Assembly: GCA_965218425.1 (NCBI GenBank)
Contig: OZ244621.1
Span: 3,200,001-3,264,000 of the forward strand
Source of the DNA: an uncultured Candidatus Binatia bacterium
GTDB lineage: Bacteria; Desulfobacterota; Binatia; UBA9968; CAXXLF01
DNA length: 64,000 bases
Direction of reading: 5' to 3'
The notes beneath the pieces are model-generated. The model did not search any database, was not told the origin of the DNA, and saw only the letters and a program-made list of their open reading frames with translations. Position numbers and translations under genes: made by a program. Every line of letters begins with the position of its first letter. Position 1 is the stretch's first letter. Below are positions 30,530-40,628 of the stretch, one piece after another.

Positions 30530-31315
30530 TCAATCTTCCATGATGATGGTGGGGATTCCTTCCCTCGCCAGCCGGCGGGCCTGGTCCTGCGCTGCGCGGC
30601 GCTTGGAAAAGGTGCCCGTTTGAACTCTATAGTAAATGGAGTCGTTGCTCCGGAATAGCACGATGGTGACGGGTTTGGCCCAAGGATAGTTCTTATTTAA
30701 CCAACCCTTCAGTTCCAAGGCATTTTCTACTTGAACGAAGGATCCTAGTTGCAACGTATAATCGAGATTCGCACGAATCATCCGAATTCTGTGAATACCT
30801 CGTTCCACCAATTCAATTTTTACAGGGATCGTCCCTGGTTCCACCATCCCCAGGGCATTGGCGGCAGCATAGGAAAGGTCAATGATCCTTCCCTTCATGA
30901 ATGGGCCACGGTCATTAATGGTGACCTCAACCGATCTGCCGGTTTCCAGGTTAGTGACCATGACATGGCTACCCAAGGGCAGGGTTTGGTGAGCTGCAGT
31001 GAGTTCAAACTGATTATAAATGACGCCACTTGCGGTGGGCAGGCCGTGAAATCCAGGACCGTACCAGGAAGCGATGCCGGTTTGACTGGCACCTCCTGGA
31101 ATGGCATGTGGACCGGGCAACTCAACCTTTGCGGGAGGTAGTGAGCAAGCGAGGAGAAAAGGGAGGAGAACTGCGGGGAACCTTCCCAATCTCCAAGCTG
31201 TGGCCCGAACTTTTGAGCGTTGATACGATGAAAGAATTGGCTGGAGCATTAAAGCGCTTATTATACAAGATTGGACCTCCGGATGGAAGATCATTTGGGG
31301 ATGGAGGCGGACCAT
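30530..31315 (-). CDS. rlpA: Septal ring lytic transglycosylase RlpA with SPOR domain; start uncertain (alternative 31249)
   Basis: Lipobox LLAC; GIASWYG, TAAHQTLP, INDRGPF, IIDLS; QLGSF SPOR domain. Confidence 0.9.
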   Translation of the reverse strand: MVRLHPQMIFHPEVQSCIISALMLQPILSSYQRSKVRATAWRLGRFPAVLLPFLLACSLPPAKVELPGPHAIPGGASQTGIASWYGPGFHGLPTASGVIYNQFELTAAHQTLPLGSHVMVTNLETGRSVEVTINDRGPFMKGRIIDLSYAAANALGMVEPGTIPVKIELVERGIHRIRMIRANLDYTLQLGSFVQVENALELKGWLNKNYPWAKPVTIVLFRSNDSIYYRVQTGTFSKRRAAQDQARRLAREGIPTIIMED

Positions 31316-31410
31316 TTACCCACGACCCATATTATGTTAAGAAGAGGGTGCTGTAATTCCTCACCCTAAGCCTGCTACTCTGATGAGTATTATTGAGAGA
31401 GGTTTCGGTT

Positions 31411-32157
31411 ATGTCAGGCCATTCTAAATGGAGTTCCATCAAGCATAAAAAAGCCGCCAAGGATGCCAAACGTGGAAAACTCTTTACCAAGCTTATCAAG
31501 GAGGTCACGGTGGCAGCCCGTATGGGTGGCGGCGACATCGATAGCAACCCCCGACTGCGCACTGCTGTACTAACCGCGAAGGCGGCCAGTATGCCTACGG
31601 AAAACATCGATCGTGCCATTAAGAAGGGCACGGGGGAACTGGAATCGGTTACCTATGAGGAGGTTAGCTACGAAGGCTACGGTCCGGGGGGAGCGGCCAT
31701 GATGGTCCACGTGCTCACGGACAATAAAAACCGAACCGTCTCGGAGATCCGACGTCTGTTCACGAAATACGGTGGCAATATGGGGGAGAGCGGATGTGTG
31801 GCCTGGATGTTCGACAGGAAGGCCTTGATCACTGTGGATAAGACCCGGATCGAAGAGGAACGTTTAATGGATGTGGCTTTGGATGGCGGAGCCGAGGATG
31901 TGCGCGAAGAAGACGGCCATTTTGAGATTGTCGCTCAACCTGAAGACCTTGAGAAACTAAGGGAACGCCTGGACCGAGAGAAAGTTCCCATGGTAACGGC
32001 ACAGATCTCCATGATTCCCAAGAACACGGTGGCCCTGGATGCTAAACATGCTGAACAAGCGCTCAAGCTTGCGGAAGAGCTTGAGGACCATGACGACGTC
32101 CAGGCCGTTTCAGCGAGCTTCGACATCCCGGATGAATTTCTCGATAAGACCGGTTAA
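31411..32157 (+). CDS. yebC: YebC/PmpR family protein
   Basis: MSGHSKWSSIKHKK, YEGYGPGG, TDNKNRT; precedes ruvCAB. Confidence 0.96.
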   Translation: MSGHSKWSSIKHKKAAKDAKRGKLFTKLIKEVTVAARMGGGDIDSNPRLRTAVLTAKAASMPTENIDRAIKKGTGELESVTYEEVSYEGYGPGGAAMMVHVLTDNKNRTVSEIRRLFTKYGGNMGESGCVAWMFDRKALITVDKTRIEEERLMDVALDGGAEDVREEDGHFEIVAQPEDLEKLRERLDREKVPMVTAQISMIPKNTVALDAKHAEQALKLAEELEDHDDVQAVSASFDIPDEFLDKTG

Positions 32158-32198
32158 CGGGTCATGGACGGGTTCATAATCTTCGTGCCCAATGGTTA

Positions 32199-32747
32199 AT
32201 GGAAATTAACGAAGAGAGGACTTTGGGGATCGATCCAGGGACCGTTCATACGGGGTGGGGGATCATTGAACTCCACCGCGGGTCCCTGATTCACGTGGCC
32301 CACGGAACCATTGGGTCCTCATCCAACCAGGGGCAGGGGGTTCGATTAAAACGCATCTATCGTGGACTCCAAGAAGTCATGCAACGCTATAGGCCCAAGA
32401 TCATTAGCGTGGAAAAGGTCTTTTTTGCCCGTAACGCTCAAAGCGCGTTGAAGTTAGGGCAGGCCCGCGGTGTGGCGCTGCTGGCCGGGGCCGAGAACGA
32501 CCTGAACCTCCAAGAATACACCCCGGTTGTAATCAAGCAATCGGTGGTGGGATACGGTCATGCCAGCAAGCTCCAAATGCAAAAGATGGTTACCTCGCTT
32601 CTTCATCTTACCGAACCCATTTCCACAGATGCAGCTGACGCCCTCGCCGCGGCCATCTGCCATCTCCATCAACGGACCTTTCAATCGCGTGTCGAGGCAG
32701 CCACGCCACCGCGGCGCCAGGTGGTGCGTCCATGTTCAGGTCGATAA
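32199..32747 (+). CDS. ruvC: Holliday junction resolvase RuvC
   Basis: LGIDPG, VEKVF, LGQARGV, DAADALAAAICH. Confidence 0.96.
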   Translation: MEINEERTLGIDPGTVHTGWGIIELHRGSLIHVAHGTIGSSSNQGQGVRLKRIYRGLQEVMQRYRPKIISVEKVFFARNAQSALKLGQARGVALLAGAENDLNLQEYTPVVIKQSVVGYGHASKLQMQKMVTSLLHLTEPISTDAADALAAAICHLHQRTFQSRVEAATPPRRQVVRPCSGR

Positions 32748-32762
32748 GGATGTGTCACACCC

Positions 32763-33353
32763 ATGATAGCAAAGATAAACGGCTCCCTCGCCCATAAGGA
32801 ACCCGGCGAGGTGGTCATCGACGTTGGGGGTATTGGGTATCAACTCTTTATCTCCCTGGGCGTGTTCTACCGTTTACCGGAAATTGGTAAACCGGTGAGC
32901 CTTTTCGTTCATACCCATCTACGGGAGGACGCCCTGCAGTTGTTTGGATTCCTCGAGCACGAGGAGAAGCAGACATTTTTGATGATGAATGGAGTGTCCG
33001 GGATCGGGCCAAAGTTGGCCATCGGTATCCTTTCGGGGATTCCATCAAAGGAACTGGTTCGCGCCCTCAGGGAGGGGGACCAGGTGCGCCTCGTTTCGAT
33101 TCCGGGAGTTGGGAAAAAGCTCGCGGAGCGTATGATTGTTGAGTTGAAAGACAAACTGATGGCCTTGCCCGACGAGAAGCAGATGGGTAGACAGGATGGC
33201 AACTCGCAATTGATGCGGGATGCGGTTTCCGCCCTTGTGAACCTGGGATACCGGCGTGGAGAATCGGAAAGTATCGTACGCGAAGTGGTTAACGGTGAAG
33301 CGGGGAACCTGGAAGTGGTTTTGAAAGAAACCCTGCGCAGGTTGAGTCAATAA
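32763..33353 (+). CDS. ruvA: Holliday junction DNA-binding protein RuvA
   Basis: [33 protein letters not shown]. Confidence 0.96.
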
Positions 33354-33366
33354 GGATACAAAACTC

Positions 33367-34458
33367 ATGGCACAACGAGGGGTCATTGAGCCCAAGGGGA
33401 CTTTGGCATCACCCATGGAGGTTAGTCCCAGTGAGATCTCTGTAATACCGACTGAAGAGGATCTAAAATTCGAGATGGGCCTAAGGCCCCGTGCCTTCGA
33501 CGAATATGTAGGACAGGACAAGGTCAAGGAGAACCTCAAAGTTGCCATTGCCGCAGCCCGAGGACGAAACGATGTCCTTGACCACTTCCTCTTCCATGGC
33601 CCGCCGGGGTTGGGGAAGACCTCATTGGCCTATATCATTTCTAGGGAGATGGGAGTCAATATTAAAGCCACCTCCGGCCCTGTGGTGGAGCGACCCGGAG
33701 ATCTGGCTGCGTTGCTCACCAACCTGGAGGAAGGCGATATCCTCTTTATCGACGAGATCCATCGTCTCAACCATGTGGTGGAGGAGGTTCTCTACCCGGC
33801 CATGGAGGACTACCAGATCGATGTCATGATCGGCCAGGGACCTTCTGCCCGATCCATCAAGCTGGAACTCAAGCGCTTCACCCTCATCGGCGCCACCACG
33901 CGATCGGGACTCCTCACACCTGCGCTGCGCAACCGGTTTGGTGCCGTCTTTCGTCTCGATTTCTATTCCCCCGAGACGCTGGTTCAGATTTTGCAAAGAT
34001 CCGCTTCCCTTCTGGGGACGAAGGGAAACCATGAGGGCATGGCAGAAATTGCACGCCGTTCCCGTGGCACCCCCAGGATCGCCAATCGTCTGCTGCGCAG
34101 GGTGCGGGATTACGCTCAGGTGAAGGCGGGCGGGGTGATTACCAAGGAAGCCACTCAGGGTGCCCTGGAGATGCTTGAAATTGACCACATAGGACTCGAT
34201 AAGATGGACATCATGATCCTGTTAACCTTAATTGATAAATTTGGCGGAGGTCCCGCGGGGCTAGAGACCCTTGCCGCCGCCATTGGAGAGGAAAAAGACA
34301 CCATCGAGGACGCCTATGAGCCCTACCTGATACAGGTGGGTTATCTTAACCGCACACCCAGGGGACGCGTGGCCACTCCTTTAGCCTATGAGCACTTTGG
34401 CCGGAGTAAGGAAACCATGCCGCCAAATGCGGGTGGGAAGCAACAGAACTTGCTTTGA
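33367..34458 (+). CDS. ruvB: Holliday junction helicase RuvB
   Basis: [34 protein letters not shown]. Confidence 0.97.
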
Positions 34459-34479
34459 GGAAGGGCAAAAAGTACAGTC

Positions 34480-34692
34480 ATGGGGGATTTGGGAAAGGTC
34501 CTTGTTCTCGTTGGTGTACTGCTGGTGGTTCTGGGAGTTATTTTCTCCCTGGGAGCTAAGATCCCGTGGTTGGGGCAGCTCCCCGGTGATATAACCTTCA
34601 GGAGGGGCAACCTTGCCTTCTATTTTCCTTTGGCTACATGCCTGCTTATCAGCGTAATATTAACCCTTGTCCTTTACTTCTTCAAAAGATAG
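34480..34692 (+). CDS. DUF2905 family small membrane protein
   Basis: LGQLPGDI...FYFPLATCLLIS. Confidence 0.85.
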   Translation: MGDLGKVLVLVGVLLVVLGVIFSLGAKIPWLGQLPGDITFRRGNLAFYFPLATCLLISVILTLVLYFFKR

Positions 34693-34737: not shown

Positions 34738-36978
34738 ATGGCCTCGCAGGACGGGTCAAAAGGAATAGAAGACGGCCTCAGGCAAGAGGAGGCTAAGGGG
34801 AGAAAGCGCGAAGGGATGGTGATGCTTGTCGCCACCCTGATGGTGCTGCTCTTTGCCTTCTTTGAAGTGCTGATCCCGGAACTCTCCACTGAATACTCCT
34901 TCACCAACAATATCGCATTCTTTCTCCTCGTTAACATCAACATTATTCTTCTCGTTTTGCTGGTGTTCCTGGTGGTGCGCAACCTGGTCAAGCTCCTGTT
35001 CGAGAGAAGGCGGAAGGTACTGGGATCACGCCTTCGGGTGCGGCTGGTCCTTGTCTTTGTTGGACTCTCGCTCATCCCCACCTTACTGCTATTTTTTATT
35101 GCTGGAGGATTCGTAACGAAGTCCTTTGAGAAATGGTTTGGGGTACAGGTGGCCAATGCGCTGCGCGGTTCGCTGGAAATAGGTGAGACCTATTACCAGA
35201 ACTCAGCGAATAACGCCCTGTTTTATGCCCGCCAGCTCAGCCAGCGTATCACCGAGGCGGGGCTGTTTGATCCCAAGTCTATGGACGGTCTGAAGGCCTT
35301 CGTGAAGGCCAAACAGCGCGAGTACAATCTGGGAACGGTGGAAGTCTTCTCCCCTGATCGTAAGCCCCTGGTGGTGGCCTTCAATGACAAAGTGCCCACG
35401 GGCATCACGGTCAAACCCGAATCCGAATTCCTCGATCGTGCGTTGCGTGGACTAGAGGTGACCCGGACTCAAGGGTTTGGAGAGGGAGACATTATCCGGG
35501 GAGGAGTCCCCGTAAAGAGTCAGGACGGAAAAATCCTGGGGGTCGTGGTGGTGGACTACTTTGTCCCCAGGAGTGTCACAAAGAGGGCACTTCAGATCAG
35601 GCGCTCCTATGATGAGCACAAGAACATGGCCATCTTTAAAGAGGATATTAAAAATACTTACCTGTTGACCCTGATCCTCTTTACTCTTGTGATTATCTTT
35701 TCCGCCACCTGGTTCGGCCTTTACCTGGCCAAGGGTATTACCGGTCCCATCCAAAAGCTTGCCGAGGGAACCCATGAGGTGGCCCACGGGAATTGGGACT
35801 ATCAGATCGACGCCAGCGGCGATGATGAGATTAGTATGCTCGTGGGTTCTTTCAACCAGATGACCCGCGATCTCAAGCAGATCAACGCGGAACTGGAACA
35901 GAGACGACGTTATATGGAGACCCTGTTGACCAACGTTACGGCAGGGGTGGTATTCGTGGATCGCCAGGGAAAGGTCCAAACCATCAACCGAGCTGCAGAA
36001 CAGATCTTGGGTCTGGATGCGGGTGAAGTGCTGGGACAACGATACGACAAGGTTTTTCAGTCTGATTCCCTTGTGGTTCTAGAGGAGATCATCGATCGTG
36101 TGCAGGGCGGCAGAGGCATCAAGCGCGAGGTCAGGGTTTCGAGAAGCGACCGGATCCTGACCTTGCTGGTGACCGCCGCTATCTTAAGGGATGATGGTGA
36201 ACAAGTGTTGGGAGTCATGATGTTTGTGGAGGACATCACCGAGATCCAGAAAGTACAACGGATGGGGGCATGGCGCGAGGTGGCCCGGCGCATTGCCCAC
36301 GAGATCAAAAATCCTCTCACTCCCATTCAGCTTTCCGCTCAACGTCTGAGGAAACGCTACGAGCATCTTCTGGAAAGCGACGGTGCAGTACTGGAAAAGT
36401 GCACTTCTACGATCATTAAACAGGTGGAGGAGCTCAAGAACCTGGTGAACGAATTCTCTAACTTCGCCCGTCTACCAACGGCGGAGCTGGCCCCCAATGA
36501 TCTCAACCAGGTGGTTAAAGAGGCTCTCTTTCTTTTCAAGGAGGGACACAGGGATTTGGAATTTCGCTTTGACAAGCGGGGAGACCTCCCGCTGCTCGAT
36601 CTGGACCGGGAACAGATCAAACGTGTCTTGATGAACCTGCTGGACAACGCGGTGGCTGTGGTGGGAGATGGCGGAAAAATCGAAATCTCCACCGAGTATG
36701 ACCCCTCCTTGCGTATCGTTCACCTGGAGGTTGCGGACAACGGTTGTGGATTGTCTCCCGAAGTGAGAGAAAATATTTTCGAACCTTACTTTTCTACCAA
36801 GAAAAACGGGACGGGTTTAGGTCTGGCCATCGTGAGCACCATCGTGTCGGATCACCGGGGTTATATACGGGTACGTCAAAACGAACCCACGGGTACGCGG
36901 TTTATCGTTGAATTGCCCGTGACGGCCCAGGACCAGCCCGTGGAATTGACAAAGCGAGAGCACGGACTTTCGATCTAA
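34738..36978 (+). CDS. NtrY-like membrane sensor histidine kinase (HAMP-PAS-HisKA-HATPase)
   Basis: N-terminal TM helices, GSRLRVRL, HAMP, PAS, AWREVARRIAHEIKNPLTPIQLSA, NLLDNA, DNGCG, GTGLGL. Confidence 0.93.
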   Translation: MASQDGSKGIEDGLRQEEAKGRKREGMVMLVATLMVLLFAFFEVLIPELSTEYSFTNNIAFFLLVNINIILLVLLVFLVVRNLVKLLFERRRKVLGSRLRVRLVLVFVGLSLIPTLLLFFIAGGFVTKSFEKWFGVQVANALRGSLEIGETYYQNSANNALFYARQLSQRITEAGLFDPKSMDGLKAFVKAKQREYNLGTVEVFSPDRKPLVVAFNDKVPTGITVKPESEFLDRALRGLEVTRTQGFGEGDIIRGGVPVKSQDGKILGVVVVDYFVPRSVTKRALQIRRSYDEHKNMAIFKEDIKNTYLLTLILFTLVIIFSATWFGLYLAKGITGPIQKLAEGTHEVAHGNWDYQIDASGDDEISMLVGSFNQMTRDLKQINAELEQRRRYMETLLTNVTAGVVFVDRQGKVQTINRAAEQILGLDAGEVLGQRYDKVFQSDSLVVLEEIIDRVQGGRGIKREVRVSRSDRILTLLVTAAILRDDGEQVLGVMMFVEDITEIQKVQRMGAWREVARRIAHEIKNPLTPIQLSAQRLRKRYEHLLESDGAVLEKCTSTIIKQVEELKNLVNEFSNFARLPTAELAPNDLNQVVKEALFLFKEGHRDLEFRFDKRGDLPLLDLDREQIKRVLMNLLDNAVAVVGDGGKIEISTEYDPSLRIVHLEVADNGCGLSPEVRENIFEPYFSTKKNGTGLGLAIVSTIVSDHRGYIRVRQNEPTGTRFIVELPVTAQDQPVELTKREHGLSI

Positions 36979-37018
36979 CAGCTGGTCAAATGGAGTTAAA
37001 GGCGGAGGAGAACGCGGA

Positions 37019-38341
37019 GTGAAAAGGAACGAAAATACTATTTTAGTTATCGATGATGAGGACGGTGTCCGGGAGACCGTAAGGGAGATCCTCACGGACG
37101 AAGGCTATCAAGTGGTGGAGGCAAAAAATGAGGCCATGGTGCAGGATTTGATCCGCAAGGAGCTGCCCCATCTCGTCTTGCTGGATATCTGGATGCCCAA
37201 CGTGGATGGTATCGATCTTTTAAAACAGATCAAGGAGCAACACCCGAACCTTCGGGTGATTATGATCTCAGGTCACGGCAACATCCACACTGCTGTGACG
37301 GCGGCCAAACTAGGTGCATTTGACTTCTTGGAGAAACCGCTTTCCCTGGAAAGTTTATTGGAAACGGTTCAGCGGGCCTTGGAGGGGCAACCTGCCGTAA
37401 AGACGGCGGCAGAAGTAAAGAGAACCAAAACCACCCAAGGACAAGGGCGTCCTAGGGCGGTGACATCCAAACGATCACGCAAGAAGACCCTGCATCAGAG
37501 GACCCTGAAAAAGAGTGTGGTGGGTGCCGGCCATGGACTTCACTCCGGGGTGAAAACAGGCCTCATCCTCCATCCATTGCCTCCCAATAGCGGCATTCTT
37601 TTCTCCAGTATTTCGGCCGATGCCACGGTTCCCGCCCATCTCCACTACGTGCTCTCCACCGGGTATGCCACCTCTCTTCAAAAAAAGGGCATCATGGTCA
37701 AAACAGTGGAGCATTTTCTCGCCGCCCTGCACTCCTATGGAATTAGCAACCTGCTGGTCAAGATGCATGGAGAAATTCCCATCATGGATGGATCTGCGTT
37801 GGAATTTTGCCGCCTCATCGAAGAAGCCGGCATTGAGGAGCAGGATGCCCAGTGGTCGGAGATTGTGGTGGATAAGCCCTACCGAACGGAAACGGATGGG
37901 GGGGAATGGATTACTGTAGAGCCAGCAGACACCTTTGGGGTCCGCTATATTCTAAACTATCCAGCTCCCGTGGGCACCCAGGAGCACACCTATATCTACT
38001 CCGGTGCGGATTCCTTTCGAGAGGAGATTGCGGGGGCTCGTACCTTTGGATTTGTGAAGGATATCGAACATCTGGAAAAAATGGGACTGGCCAATGGAGG
38101 CCGCCTTAGCAATTGCATCCTGATTGGTGATGAGAAGATCATCAACACGGATCTTCGTTTCCCCGATGAATTGGCCAGGCACAAAATTCTGGACATCGTA
38201 GGCGATTTTTATTTGTTGGGGAAGCCCATTCGAGGCATGGTGACGGCTTGCATGACCGGACACTCGGACAATATTGCTTTACTCAGAGAGATGAAAAGGG
38301 GCATGGCCCTGGAAGAGGAGCCTCGGGTCAACCCTAGCTAG
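37019..38341 (+). CDS. lpxC: Receiver-domain (NtrX-like REC) fused to LpxC (UDP-3-O-acyl-GlcNAc deacetylase)
   Basis: aa 1-122 REC (DD, D56 in LLDIWMP, ISGHG, EKP); basic linker; from aa 160 LpxC (QRTL, GLHSG, TVEH, PIMDGS, ARTFGF, HKILD, GH). Confidence 0.92.
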   Translation: MKRNENTILVIDDEDGVRETVREILTDEGYQVVEAKNEAMVQDLIRKELPHLVLLDIWMPNVDGIDLLKQIKEQHPNLRVIMISGHGNIHTAVTAAKLGAFDFLEKPLSLESLLETVQRALEGQPAVKTAAEVKRTKTTQGQGRPRAVTSKRSRKKTLHQRTLKKSVVGAGHGLHSGVKTGLILHPLPPNSGILFSSISADATVPAHLHYVLSTGYATSLQKKGIMVKTVEHFLAALHSYGISNLLVKMHGEIPIMDGSALEFCRLIEEAGIEEQDAQWSEIVVDKPYRTETDGGEWITVEPADTFGVRYILNYPAPVGTQEHTYIYSGADSFREEIAGARTFGFVKDIEHLEKMGLANGGRLSNCILIGDEKIINTDLRFPDELARHKILDIVGDFYLLGKPIRGMVTACMTGHSDNIALLREMKRGMALEEEPRVNPS

Positions 38342-38344
38342 ATC

Positions 38345-38785
38345 ATGGCAAACTTCCAACCCTTTCCTCGTCTTTTCACTGTGGCCGAGGCGAGGTCCCT
38401 TCTTCCTACTTTGCGTCCTTTGATTGAACAGGTATTTCAAAGCCTCGAAGTTATGAAGAGCAAGAGCGAGGCGCTGATTCGCAGGGAGGGGCTCAACCCC
38501 GACAGCCCCGATTTACAAAAGAAGCTCGAAGCGGACGATACAGTTGCCGGCGTCATACGCCGGGTGGAAGGATTAGTGGAGCGGATCAACGATCTTGGCT
38601 GTGTCTGCAAGGGAGTGGAGCAGGGTCTTGTGGATTTTCCCTGCCTCTTGGGAGATGAGGTAGTGTTTCTCTGTTGGCAGTATGGCGAAGAAGACGTTAA
38701 CCATTGGCACAGTATCCATGATGGGTTTACGGGGCGCCGAACTTTGCTCGATCTAGATGAAGAGAAAAAGACTTCCTATCACTGA
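38345..38785 (+). CDS. DUF2203 family protein
   Basis: FTVAEARSLLP, GLVDFP, FLCWQYGE, WH...GFTGRR. Confidence 0.88.
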   Translation: MANFQPFPRLFTVAEARSLLPTLRPLIEQVFQSLEVMKSKSEALIRREGLNPDSPDLQKKLEADDTVAGVIRRVEGLVERINDLGCVCKGVEQGLVDFPCLLGDEVVFLCWQYGEEDVNHWHSIHDGFTGRRTLLDLDEEKKTSYH

Positions 38786-39507
38786 TGGGAACCCTTCCTG
38801 AGGGTCCTCCTCGCCTTGAGCACCGGAATCGCGTCAATTTTCTCCTGAGAGATCATAGACCAATAGATTCCGCGTGGTTTGCCCTTGCTGGGACCAAGAG
38901 CCAGGACCTTTTCCGGGGTAATGATTGCGTTGATCGGTATGTCATGTTCGGTCATAGGTATCTCCGAATTGAGGAGTTGCAAGGGGTGGATGGTGGTGAC
39001 GATTGGAGTACTGGCGTCCACTTGCCCTTCTTCCCTGAGCAGAGCATATTCCAGGTCTGAATAGCCTCCTCCCTTGCCCACCCGCGCTCCTTTCCCATTC
39101 ACCGCCACGGATCCGCAAACAATGAGATGGATCTTTTTTATCTTTTCCATGGCCACTGGGCGTCCGTACTTTGTAGCCCCTTTGATGGAGGAGGCGTGGA
39201 AAGGGGAGACTTTCAAGTGTCTTGGGTCCAACTCGATGAATGGCTTCATGCTTTGAAGTCTCGGCACCGCCATATAAACGATCTTACCTTCCTCAAGAGC
39301 CCTTTGACGTACGGCCCTTTGAGGGGAATCCGGGTTGGCTTTGATCCTTTTGGCTTGCTGCCAGGAGGGTAGCTGACTGAGAAGATGAGCACACCTTTCG
39401 GAACCCACGAAGTTGGGAATCCTTCCCTGGGGGCCAGGGAAGCGGGCCACCTGCTTTTCTTTCATGATTTGCCAGATCCCCGCGCGAATGTCGTCCTTTC
39501 TCTCCAT
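38779..39507 (-). CDS. 5-formyltetrahydrofolate cyclo-ligase family (MTHFSD-like)
   Basis: GRIPNFVG, NPDSPQ, GSVAV..GARVGKGGGYSDLEY, HD. Confidence 0.88.
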   Translation of the reverse strand: MERKDDIRAGIWQIMKEKQVARFPGPQGRIPNFVGSERCAHLLSQLPSWQQAKRIKANPDSPQRAVRQRALEEGKIVYMAVPRLQSMKPFIELDPRHLKVSPFHASSIKGATKYGRPVAMEKIKKIHLIVCGSVAVNGKGARVGKGGGYSDLEYALLREEGQVDASTPIVTTIHPLQLLNSEIPMTEHDIPINAIITPEKVLALGPSKGKPRGIYWSMISQEKIDAIPVLKARRTLRKGSHQ

Positions 39508-39551: not shown

Positions 39552-40628
39552 CTAGCCCTGGGAAAGCAAATTACTCAAATCGATGATACCGGCATTGGCG
39601 CGGGAAATATAGGATGACATCACCAGCGAGTAATTTGCAGTGAAGCCGAAATCCGCTCCGTTGAGAACCATTGGGCTCCATACTGTTCGTTGCGTTGCTT
39701 CCAATTCTCGGATGATCTGTTGGACACTTCTCATGGCATTTTTTTTCTCAAGAACTTCCTTGAAGTCGACCTCCACAGCACGTAGGAAAAGGATCAAGGC
39801 CCAACAGGTTCCTCGCGCCTCGTAAAAGACATCATCAATCTCCAGCCAGGGTGTTTTTATCCCTACTTCGAAGTTCGGCAGGGTGGATTGCTGTGCCTCA
39901 GCATCCCCTGCCAGGTCCGTGTTGATACGAATTTGTCCCACACTGGCGCTCAAGCGTTGGGATAGGCTCCCCAGACGATTGGCCACCACCTTGAGCCAGT
40001 CGCGAAGATTATCCGCACGGGAATAAAATTGCGTGCCCGTATTCGCAGTGTCCGCCACCCCGGCTAGATAACCCTTTAACGCCTCAATTCCCTTGCGGTA
40101 TTCGGTCTCTGCAGAAGGGAACAGCCATGCCTCGTTATCTACGTTGAATTGCGGCTCTGCCTTGGCCAGATCCACGTTCTCCTTTGATTGGGTTTGACCG
40201 CGGCTGATGTCGTTTCGCAACACGCGTGTAAGATCTCGTACCTGGACTAGAGCACCGTATTCCCAGCCGGGCATGTTATCCATGAATACGCCGGGCGGCA
40301 GCACGTCGTTGGTCAAATAGCCACCGGGTTTGTCCAGTAAATTACTTGCCACCTTGATTAGCGTGCTGGTGGTAACATAGCCCGTCACCAGATTTTCGTT
40401 GCGGTCTGCGGCCTGATACTCGGCCACTTGCTGAACATCGAAAAGATTCGGCTCGTTGCTCCAGTAGACCACCACGGTGAATAAAAGCAAAAAAATCAGT
40501 ACCAGGGTGAGGCCTACGGCCCGCATTCTACCCCGGAGTTTCAAATTCCGCGGATTCAATCGTGACAGGATTCGCTTTATTGGATTTTGAGGTTGAATGG
40601 TTTCTGTCTGGATATCGGGAACAGCCAC
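39552..40628 (-). CDS. DUF2333 family protein
   Basis: TM + YWSNEP, LLDKPGGYLTND..PPG..MDNMP.WEYG, FYSRADNL, ANYSLVMSSY. Confidence 0.88.
   Translation of the reverse strand: MAVPDIQTETIQPQNPIKRILSRLNPRNLKLRGRMRAVGLTLVLIFLLLFTVVVYWSNEPNLFDVQQVAEYQAADRNENLVTGYVTTSTLIKVASNLLDKPGGYLTNDVLPPGVFMDNMPGWEYGALVQVRDLTRVLRNDISRGQTQSKENVDLAKAEPQFNVDNEAWLFPSAETEYRKGIEALKGYLAGVADTANTGTQFYSRADNLRDWLKVVANRLGSLSQRLSASVGQIRINTDLAGDAEAQQSTLPNFEVGIKTPWLEIDDVFYEARGTCWALILFLRAVEVDFKEVLEKKNAMRSVQQIIRELEATQRTVWSPMVLNGADFGFTANYSLVMSSYISRANAGIIDLSNLLSQG

Follow-up and report, generated by a model that had tools for sequence, protein, structure and literature searches.

A receiver domain fused to the sole LpxC of a Candidatus Binatia bacterium: a putative response regulator with a lipid A enzyme as its output

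Known controls of LpxC and the receiver-LpxC gene

Lipopolysaccharide synthesis is controlled at LpxC, the UDP-3-O-acyl-GlcNAc deacetylase, which commits the cell to lipid A and is an antibiotic target. The controls listed in the portions of a 2025 review used here (PMC12444477) are FtsH/LapB proteolysis in Escherichia coli, activation by MurA in Pseudomonas aeruginosa and Lon in alphaproteobacteria, and the same portions frame LpxC control as proteolysis, MurA binding or indirect effects on transcription. In Desulfovibrio vulgaris, the sigma-54 regulator DVU2934, the kinase of which is DVU2931, is reported to have lpxC (DVU2917) as its single target, and in Syntrophobacter fumaroxidans lpxC lies directly upstream of the orthologous regulator operon (excerpts of PMC3333781). 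In two alphaproteobacteria, NtrYX lowers transcription of lpxC (excerpts of PMC7240162 and PMC12444477); in one of them, Rhodobacter sphaeroides, loss of NtrYX raised the lpxC transcript about 8.8-fold, an effect reported as indirect in the excerpts of PMC7240162. Here we describe a different arrangement in an uncultured Candidatus Binatia bacterium. In a stretch of 64,000 nucleotides (nt), hereafter the window (contig OZ244621.1 of assembly GCA_965218425.1, positions 3,200,001 to 3,264,000), a gene immediately downstream of an NtrY-type sensor histidine kinase encodes a receiver (REC) domain fused to LpxC (Table 1).

Response regulators with enzymatic outputs, such as CheB, PleD, WspR and RpfG, are a known kind of protein, in which a flexible linker joins a receiver to a catalytic domain. 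The window's protein is like the CheB-type regulators in having these three parts and unlike them in that their output domains are unrelated to LpxC; what is new is LpxC as the output. No paper on a receiver-LpxC fusion, or on LpxC as the output of a regulator, was found in the full-text literature, a corpus that lies mostly outside subscription journals. PMC12444477 contains no occurrence of the terms fusion, fused, receiver, response regulator or domain architecture. An earlier note on this DNA, written by a model from the letters alone, had stated that it knew of no characterised system like this one; the literature search and the excerpts of the 2025 review agree with that statement.

The same note had described an uninterrupted open reading frame of 440 amino acids (aa) with a complete receiver (D12, D13, D56, the S of the motif ISGHG, which is S84, and K106), a linker rich in K, R and T and a full LpxC, starting 40 nt after the kinase and followed 3 nt after its stop codon by a DUF2203 gene. 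Every one of these features was recovered from the frame itself and from searches of Pfam and NCBIfam. The receiver matched Response_reg (PF00072) with an E-value of 1.6e-31 (109.2 bits), and the LpxC part matched PF03331 with an E-value of 3.8e-83 (279.5 bits, cut-off 27) over 266 of 268 profile positions and the NCBIfam lpxC model TIGR00325 with 250.9 bits (cut-off 187.25). The top NCBIfam match of the receiver was NtrX (NF051870), which scored 138.5 bits (cut-off 600) over model positions 3-155 only. Its closest solved relatives were 4d6x ('Bacterial regulatory, Fis family protein') and 5m7n ('Nitrogen assimilation regulatory protein'), with E-values of about 1e-28. Pfam detected neither an AAA+ nor a helix-turn-helix (HTH) domain in the fusion protein, which places it outside NtrX, as does the score below the NF051870 cut-off; the lack of AAA+ also places it outside the sigma-54 enhancer-binding proteins. 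By these sequence comparisons the receiver is of the NtrX/NtrC type, yet the fusion protein is not an NtrX. The NtrY/NtrX systems of R. sphaeroides and Caulobacter crescentus (excerpts of PMC7240162, bioRxiv 10.1101/2021.04.17.440287 and PMC12444477) are similar in the NtrY architecture of the kinase and in the family that the receiver matches best. They differ in that NtrX binds DNA and has dozens of genes in its regulon (excerpts of PMC7240162), whereas the window's protein has no DNA-binding part and falls short of the NtrX score.

Table 1. Features of the locus in window coordinates.
Feature	Positions	Strand	Remarks
ruvA	32763-33353	+	name from reading of translation
ruvB	33367-34458	+	name from reading of translation
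DUF2905 small membrane protein	34480-34692	+	Pfam PF11146, E 2.5e-22; directly 5' of kinase
NtrY-type sensor histidine kinase	34738-36978	+	746 aa; NtrY_N (34.4 bits, cut-off 23.2), HAMP, PAS, HisKA, HATPase_c (Pfam)
Spacer between kinase and fusion	36979-37018	+	40 nt; GGAGG ribosome-binding site 9 nt 5' of GTG; without sigma-54-type promoter element (motif scan)
REC-LpxC fusion gene	37019-38341	+	single 440-aa frame, 48-kDa product, GTG start; sole lpxC of the genome
Receiver domain	37040-37369	+	aa 8-117; D12, D13, D56, S84, F103, K106 (Pfam)
Disordered linker	37388-37477	+	aa 124-153; pLDDT <50; strongly basic only in the window's lineage
LpxC domain	37496-38293	+	aa 160-425; E231-H232, T342-F343, H388-K389, D392, D396, H415
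DUF2203 gene	38345-38785	+	Pfam PF09969, E 1.5e-32; 3 nt after fusion stop
5-formyltetrahydrofolate cyclo-ligase family gene	38779-39507	-	converges on DUF2203, ends overlap by 7 nt; also in L003
DUF2333 protein	39552-40628	-	496 bits; converges on DUF2203; also in genus-level relative L003

Both halves of the fusion look functional, judged by their conserved residues. Across 63 aligned family members (32-91% identity to the window's protein), E231, H232, H388, K389, D392, D396 and H415 were invariant. The motifs EH (231-232), HKILD (388-392) and TGH (413-415), which the earlier note had singled out as EH, HKILD and GH, were likewise invariant and coincided in the alignment with those of solved Pseudomonas-type LpxC. 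We take the E-H, HKxxD and GH motifs to provide zinc ligands and catalytic residues of LpxC. On the receiver side, 54 representative fused proteins with a complete receiver kept D56 in 51 cases, K106 and D13 in 53 each and S/T84 in all 54, and the switch residue set D56, S/T84, F/Y103 and K106 is kept across the fused family. Replacements of D56 by N, S or E occur in P0145, P0150 and P0210, which may be pseudo-receiver versions of the fusion.

An AlphaFold2 model of the fusion (mean predicted local distance difference test, pLDDT, 83.5; predicted template modelling score, pTM, 0.68) contained a confident (beta-alpha)5 receiver at residues 7-122 and a confident LpxC at residues 158-428, with pLDDT below 50 at residues 124-153. 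The linker following the receiver measured 35 aa with a net charge of +10. In 120 close relatives its median net charge was +8; in 41 wider representatives, where its length ranged from 20 to 93 aa, the median was +1. Because neither charge nor length is conserved across the family, the linker is best described as a tether with no conserved motif. A conserved motif or a remnant of an HTH domain in the window's linker was considered and rejected, since the HTH region gives no match on short forms of the family and the linker is not conserved. The tail that follows the TGHxxN motif comprised 13-22 aa (median 13) in 119 close relatives.

The earlier note had proposed checking for a second stand-alone lpxC, for support of the receiver-linker-LpxC junction and for the fusion in relatives, and all three checks came out in favour of the fusion. 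The genome, a single contig of 4,459,497 bases (4.46 Mb, 97% complete), gave one match in an LpxC family search, the fused gene. It also gave two lpxA matches above the cut-off and one lpxB match; the fusion is thus the only LpxC of a lipid A pathway that is present. Contigs from three runs of three studies, one of which may be the assembly's own source, span at least positions 36500-38304 and show 0 differences and no indels at the junction. In the window's order (3 families, 11 genera), the full-length fusion was found in 40 of 41 genomes and, in the 41st, split over two contigs. An extra partial lpxC was present in only one of them (G018), at a contig end. The single stop inside many of the matches in the order is the one that ends the gene, given that the open reading frames of the relatives reach query residue ~431. 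As for the rest of the pathway in the window's genome, a cluster with an lpxD-like match, lpxA and lpxB lies at C1:3109808-3114934, about 125 kb upstream of the fused lpxC, and the second lpxA copy lies apart from it at C1:1840756-1841511.

Fused forms and their unfused counterpart

The family was searched among 1.84 billion cluster representatives, and the forms described here come from the best 150 of 1,807 matches at E <= 1e-30. Both the receiver and the LpxC domain were present in every one of the 120 best clusters at 90% identity. Besides the short form (REC-LpxC, ~420-460 aa), to which the window's protein belongs, we found a long form of 650-736 aa, in which the receiver is followed by a sigma-54-type AAA+ domain, an AAA lid and LpxC (15 REC-AAA+-(HTH)-LpxC representatives), and a form of 491-505 aa with a receiver, a Fis-type HTH domain and LpxC (2 representatives). 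None of the 15 long forms had a GAFTGA-like loop or the 'DE' of Walker B, and 13 kept Walker A. Several contained internal deletions in the AAA+ domain, and the HTH region was detectable by phmmer in 8 of the 15. The lack of GAFTGA is shared by NtrX.

Among the 150 LpxC rows listed for a sample of 201 genomes from the phylum were 28 short fusions, 14 matches in frames of 690-837 aa, 6 in frames of 450-497 aa and 102 stand-alone genes. Inspection showed REC-AAA+-LpxC in two of the long frames (G046 and G085) and REC-LpxC with a longer linker in one of the middle-sized frames (G145). Open frames of 1007-1423 aa in G150, G183 and G116 had suggested a kinase joined in frame to the fusion; this was rejected, as the kinase lies in another frame and the DNA is poor in stops. 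The titles of records with fusions named Syntrophobacteraceae, 'Deltaproteobacteria', Candidatus Binatia, Thermoanaerobaculia, Holophagae and Terriglobia, and further Thermodesulfovibrionia, Aminicenantes, Nitrospinota and one metagenome-assembled genome of Pseudomonadota.

In a tree of the LpxC domain (107 rows), all fused forms, together with four possibly truncated rows labelled as LpxC alone, fell on one side of a branch supported at 99 in the Shimodaira-Hasegawa-like approximate likelihood ratio test (SH-aLRT). The same branch had an SH-aLRT of 97 in a tree of 57 rows rooted on stand-alone LpxC. The window's LpxC lay inside the fused clade, apart from stand-alone and FabZ-fused LpxC, and was sister to P0121 at 100 and 99. 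By this sequence evidence, the fused LpxCs form a single clade and are of one origin. Within the clade, short and long forms were interleaved: P0140 (REC-HTH-LpxC) was sister to P0141 (long) at 100, and P0145 (short) stood within a clade of long forms at 100. The starred branches of the 57-row tree alone force the short-form label to change at least six times. It would be the simpler mechanism for a decaying AAA+ domain to be lost repeatedly, and we infer on this ground that the order ran from long to short. The tree itself leaves the order of the two forms undecided, because three short-form lineages are basal in the rooted fused clade.

We also examined 24 unfused loci, of which 22 belong to the phylum and 2 to other phyla. 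In 22 of the 24, lpxC is followed by the NtrY-like kinase and then by the regulator, and 20 of the 22 regulators of these lpxC-kinase-regulator loci contained GAFTGA or GSFTGA. The loci were then scanned for a -24/-12-type pattern, GG[CT]A[CT]-N5-[CT]TGC[ATC], which follows the sigma-54 consensus. Such an element was located 37-81 nt 5' of the lpxC start in 14 of the 24 (L105, L107, L109, L110, L112, L113, L115, L116, L119, L121, L123, L124, L087 and L092). The pattern occurred only 22 times in the 431,808 nt of all unfused loci, both strands counted, and 14 of these 22 occurrences precede lpxC. These sequence features point to a widespread sigma-54 circuit dedicated to lpxC in the unfused loci. 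The arrangement is like that of S. fumaroxidans, as far as the excerpts of PMC3333781 describe it.

The window shares its neighbourhood with one of these loci, L106: the order there is ruvB, DUF2905, lpxC, kinase and regulator, and in the window it is ruvA, ruvB, DUF2905, kinase and REC-LpxC. The window's locus is on this account the syntenic counterpart of the lpxC-dedicated sigma-54 system. Of 55 fused genes, only 2 had a -24/-12 element upstream, one of these cases being doubtful, and the motif scan found none in the window between positions 31001 and 37028. The proposal of the earlier note that the enzyme has replaced the transcriptional output was borne out by the intermediate forms, by the unfused syntenic trio and by the loss of GAFTGA, of the Walker B glutamate and of the sigma-54-type promoter; replacement of an NtrX/NtrC-type transcriptional output by LpxC is well supported by these comparisons. 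The D. vulgaris system, compared here by its description in the excerpts of PMC3333781 rather than by the sequences of DVU2931 and DVU2934, is alike in being a two-component system with LpxC as its single reported output. It differs in acting on transcription through an intact sigma-54 activator, whereas in the window the AAA+ domain, the HTH domain and the promoter element are gone and receiver and enzyme are covalently linked.

Predicted phospho-control of LpxC and competing explanations

On balance, we consider it probable that the kinase and the fusion form a two-component pair with LpxC as the regulator's output, in which a system dedicated to lpxC has been short-circuited, so that phosphorylation would control LpxC directly. 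The ancestral system would have run from an NtrY-like kinase through a sigma-54 enhancer-binding regulator to a sigma-54 promoter before lpxC. The regulator would then have been joined to LpxC and have lost sigma-54 activation and, in the window's lineage, would have lost the AAA+ and HTH modules entirely. In the present system, the membrane-bound NtrY-type kinase, as the presumed donor, would phosphorylate the receiver at D56, and the phosphorylation state would set the output of the attached LpxC, the only one of the cell, post-translationally across the flexible linker, via catalytic activity or protein stability. Since the unfused regulator is an activator, phosphorylation would by analogy be expected to raise LpxC output.

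The active site of CheB is blocked by its receiver as long as the latter is unphosphorylated. By analogy, a block of this sort may be the simplest model for the fusion, and the obvious models are CheB-like release of inhibition and phosphorylation-driven dimerisation. A more specific version, which we consider slightly less likely than not, is that the fused sensor activates LpxC allosterically or stabilises it within seconds, where the older sensor used a sigma-54 activator on the lpxC promoter; this control would replace protease control of the E. coli type, and the link of alphaproteobacterial NtrYX with the envelope would be a remnant of the old wiring. FtsH/LapB, MurA and Lon, in the excerpts of PMC12444477, have the same target and likewise control the committed step at the protein level. 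They differ in that control by the fusion would be exerted in cis, by an attached phospho-switch, and no LapB was found in the window's genome with the two queries used (PF18073, no match; NF008757, best score only 45 bits against a cut-off of 363).

The assignment of the kinase draws on the gene content of this and related genomes. All five Pfam families of an NtrY-type kinase (Table 1) scored above their cut-offs, and this kinase was the only NtrY_N match of the genome. No NtrX above the cut-off was found in the genome, and its two other NtrC-type regulators, at C1:4053409 and C1:2482715, each adjoin a kinase of their own. In four other genomes (G093, G196, G166 and G159), a short fusion lies away from an NtrY-like kinase that has no adjacent regulator, and such a lone kinase fits a fusion acting as its receiver. 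NtrY_N kinases were found in 155 of the 201 sampled genomes of the phylum. The earlier note had suggested looking at synteny with NtrY: the adjacency holds in the window and is not general, since only 7 of the 28 short fusions listed for the phylum sample lie within 6 kb of an NtrY-like kinase. Of the 102 stand-alone lpxC genes listed, 31 lie within that distance. In two genomes a receiver-LpxC fusion coexists with a stand-alone lpxC (G074, C11:39482-40777 and C33:20147-20962; G239, C52:6907-7761 and C232:4649-5464), and in both the stand-alone copy adjoins an NtrY-like kinase.

The sequences show the anatomy of the fusion, its status as sole copy, its intact residues, its origin from a dedicated regulator and the loss of the transcriptional route; gating of LpxC, or of lipopolysaccharide flux, by phosphorylation of D56 is inferred. 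Several observations, besides the basal short forms in the tree, weigh against the proposed explanation. Some family members presumably work without phosphorylation at this site, as 3 of the 54 representatives lack D56. The model, with two confident domains joined by a linker of low pLDDT and a pTM of 0.68, does not indicate a fixed contact between receiver and LpxC, and any coupling cannot depend on a linker motif, given the variation in linker length and charge. The 7 short fusions near a kinase are accompanied by 6 of 14 long fusions and 0 of 6 middle-sized forms listed, and the fusion loci of acidobacterial type have no NtrY-like kinase nearby. In addition, LpxC is normally essential, which makes a strict off state unlikely and tuning more plausible than switching.

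The receiver might instead be a tether only, docking LpxC on the kinase at the inner membrane or driving its dimerisation, so that phosphorylation would alter location or partner rather than catalysis or stability. A long, disordered and variable linker would suit such a role, and the basic linker of the close relatives could lie on the anionic membrane. Moreover, a LapB homologue has been suggested to localise LpxC to the inner membrane in Neisseria (excerpts of PMC12444477). We nevertheless regard this explanation as unlikely: only in close relatives is the linker basic, a passive dock would not need the complete switch residue set, and many fusions lie far from a kinase gene, although binding would still be possible there.

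Similarly improbable, in our estimate, is a fusion that is neutral or matters only for expression level, the receiver taking phosphate as a sink or for another partner and LpxC being constitutive and co-expressed at a fixed ratio. Neighbouring genes with linked functions commonly fuse, the model of the fusion shows no confident contact between the domains, and D56 has been lost in the three representatives mentioned above. A receiver without a role should, however, decay as the AAA+ domain did. Instead, AAA+ and HTH domains decay or vanish repeatedly, as the changes of the short-form label indicate, while the receiver keeps its acceptor residues. The genome has no lpxC other than the fusion, which all 41 genomes of the order share and which recurs in several named phyla.

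That the fusion exists at the DNA level only, free LpxC being made from an internal start or by cleavage of the linker, is very improbable. A disordered linker could be open to proteases, but there is no ATG, GTG or TTG where the LpxC domain begins and codons 157-159 read ACC CTG CAT, and the first GTG codons (V166 and V167) are situated past the conserved QRTLKKS strand; furthermore, in 161 family members the frame is uninterrupted through a linker of variable sequence and length. An assembly artefact, or a recent deletion in this genome only, is refuted by the identical contigs of three studies, by the two domains in 120 of 120 top clusters and by the 41 of 41 genomes of the order.

Neighbouring genes and meaning of the fusion

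Upstream of the kinase, five genes on the same strand are separated by short gaps (31393-34692): a YebC-like gene, ruvC, ruvA and ruvB, named from their translations, and the DUF2905 gene, identified by Pfam. Homologues of ruvAB lie upstream of the kinase in L014, L015, L017, L023, L029 and L094 and upstream of the unfused lpxC-kinase-regulator trio in L106, L115, L119 and L122. The DUF2905 gene precedes the kinase in L014, L015, L018, L023, L035 and L040 and the free lpxC in L106, L110 and L113. In distant relatives, ruvAB-DUF2905 precedes the kinase (fused loci) or lpxC (unfused loci), a link of DNA repair genes with an envelope system. Scans of the window for sigma-70 promoters and terminators remained at shuffle level (5 vs 5.0 and 10 vs 9.3, respectively).

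Downstream of the fusion, DUF2203 was found in L003, L004 and L006-L015, and it is kept in the order and in the loci of Syntrophobacteraceae. Residues C86, C100, C110, W111, W121 and H122 of its product were invariant in 12 aligned copies, with C88 conserved in at least 90%; from this conservation, a metal or redox site formed by the Cys and His residues is possible. Its structure was modelled as a helical hairpin with a small beta domain. No clear solved relative was found by sequence search of the PDB (best E-value 0.21) or by Foldseek (none at E <= 0.001). In structure comparison, VIA-align gave a best Z of 6.8, on generic helical hairpins. A search of the Atlas returned DUF2203 clusters only, and in the literature searched the term DUF2203 occurs once, in a single paper.

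A phospho-receiver on the sole LpxC is conserved over whole orders and occurs in records under several phyla. The series from unfused loci with a sigma-54-type promoter, through fusions with a dead AAA+ domain, to the bare receiver-LpxC protein points to a further mode of LpxC control, which is testable in vitro with one purified protein, and gives genomic support for a specific and old link of NtrY-type kinases with the outer membrane. If the proposed control is true, receiver-LpxC would be a new class of enzymatic response regulator. Taken together, the evidence suggests that this bacterium and many of its relatives control lipid A synthesis by signalling phosphate rather than by gene expression.

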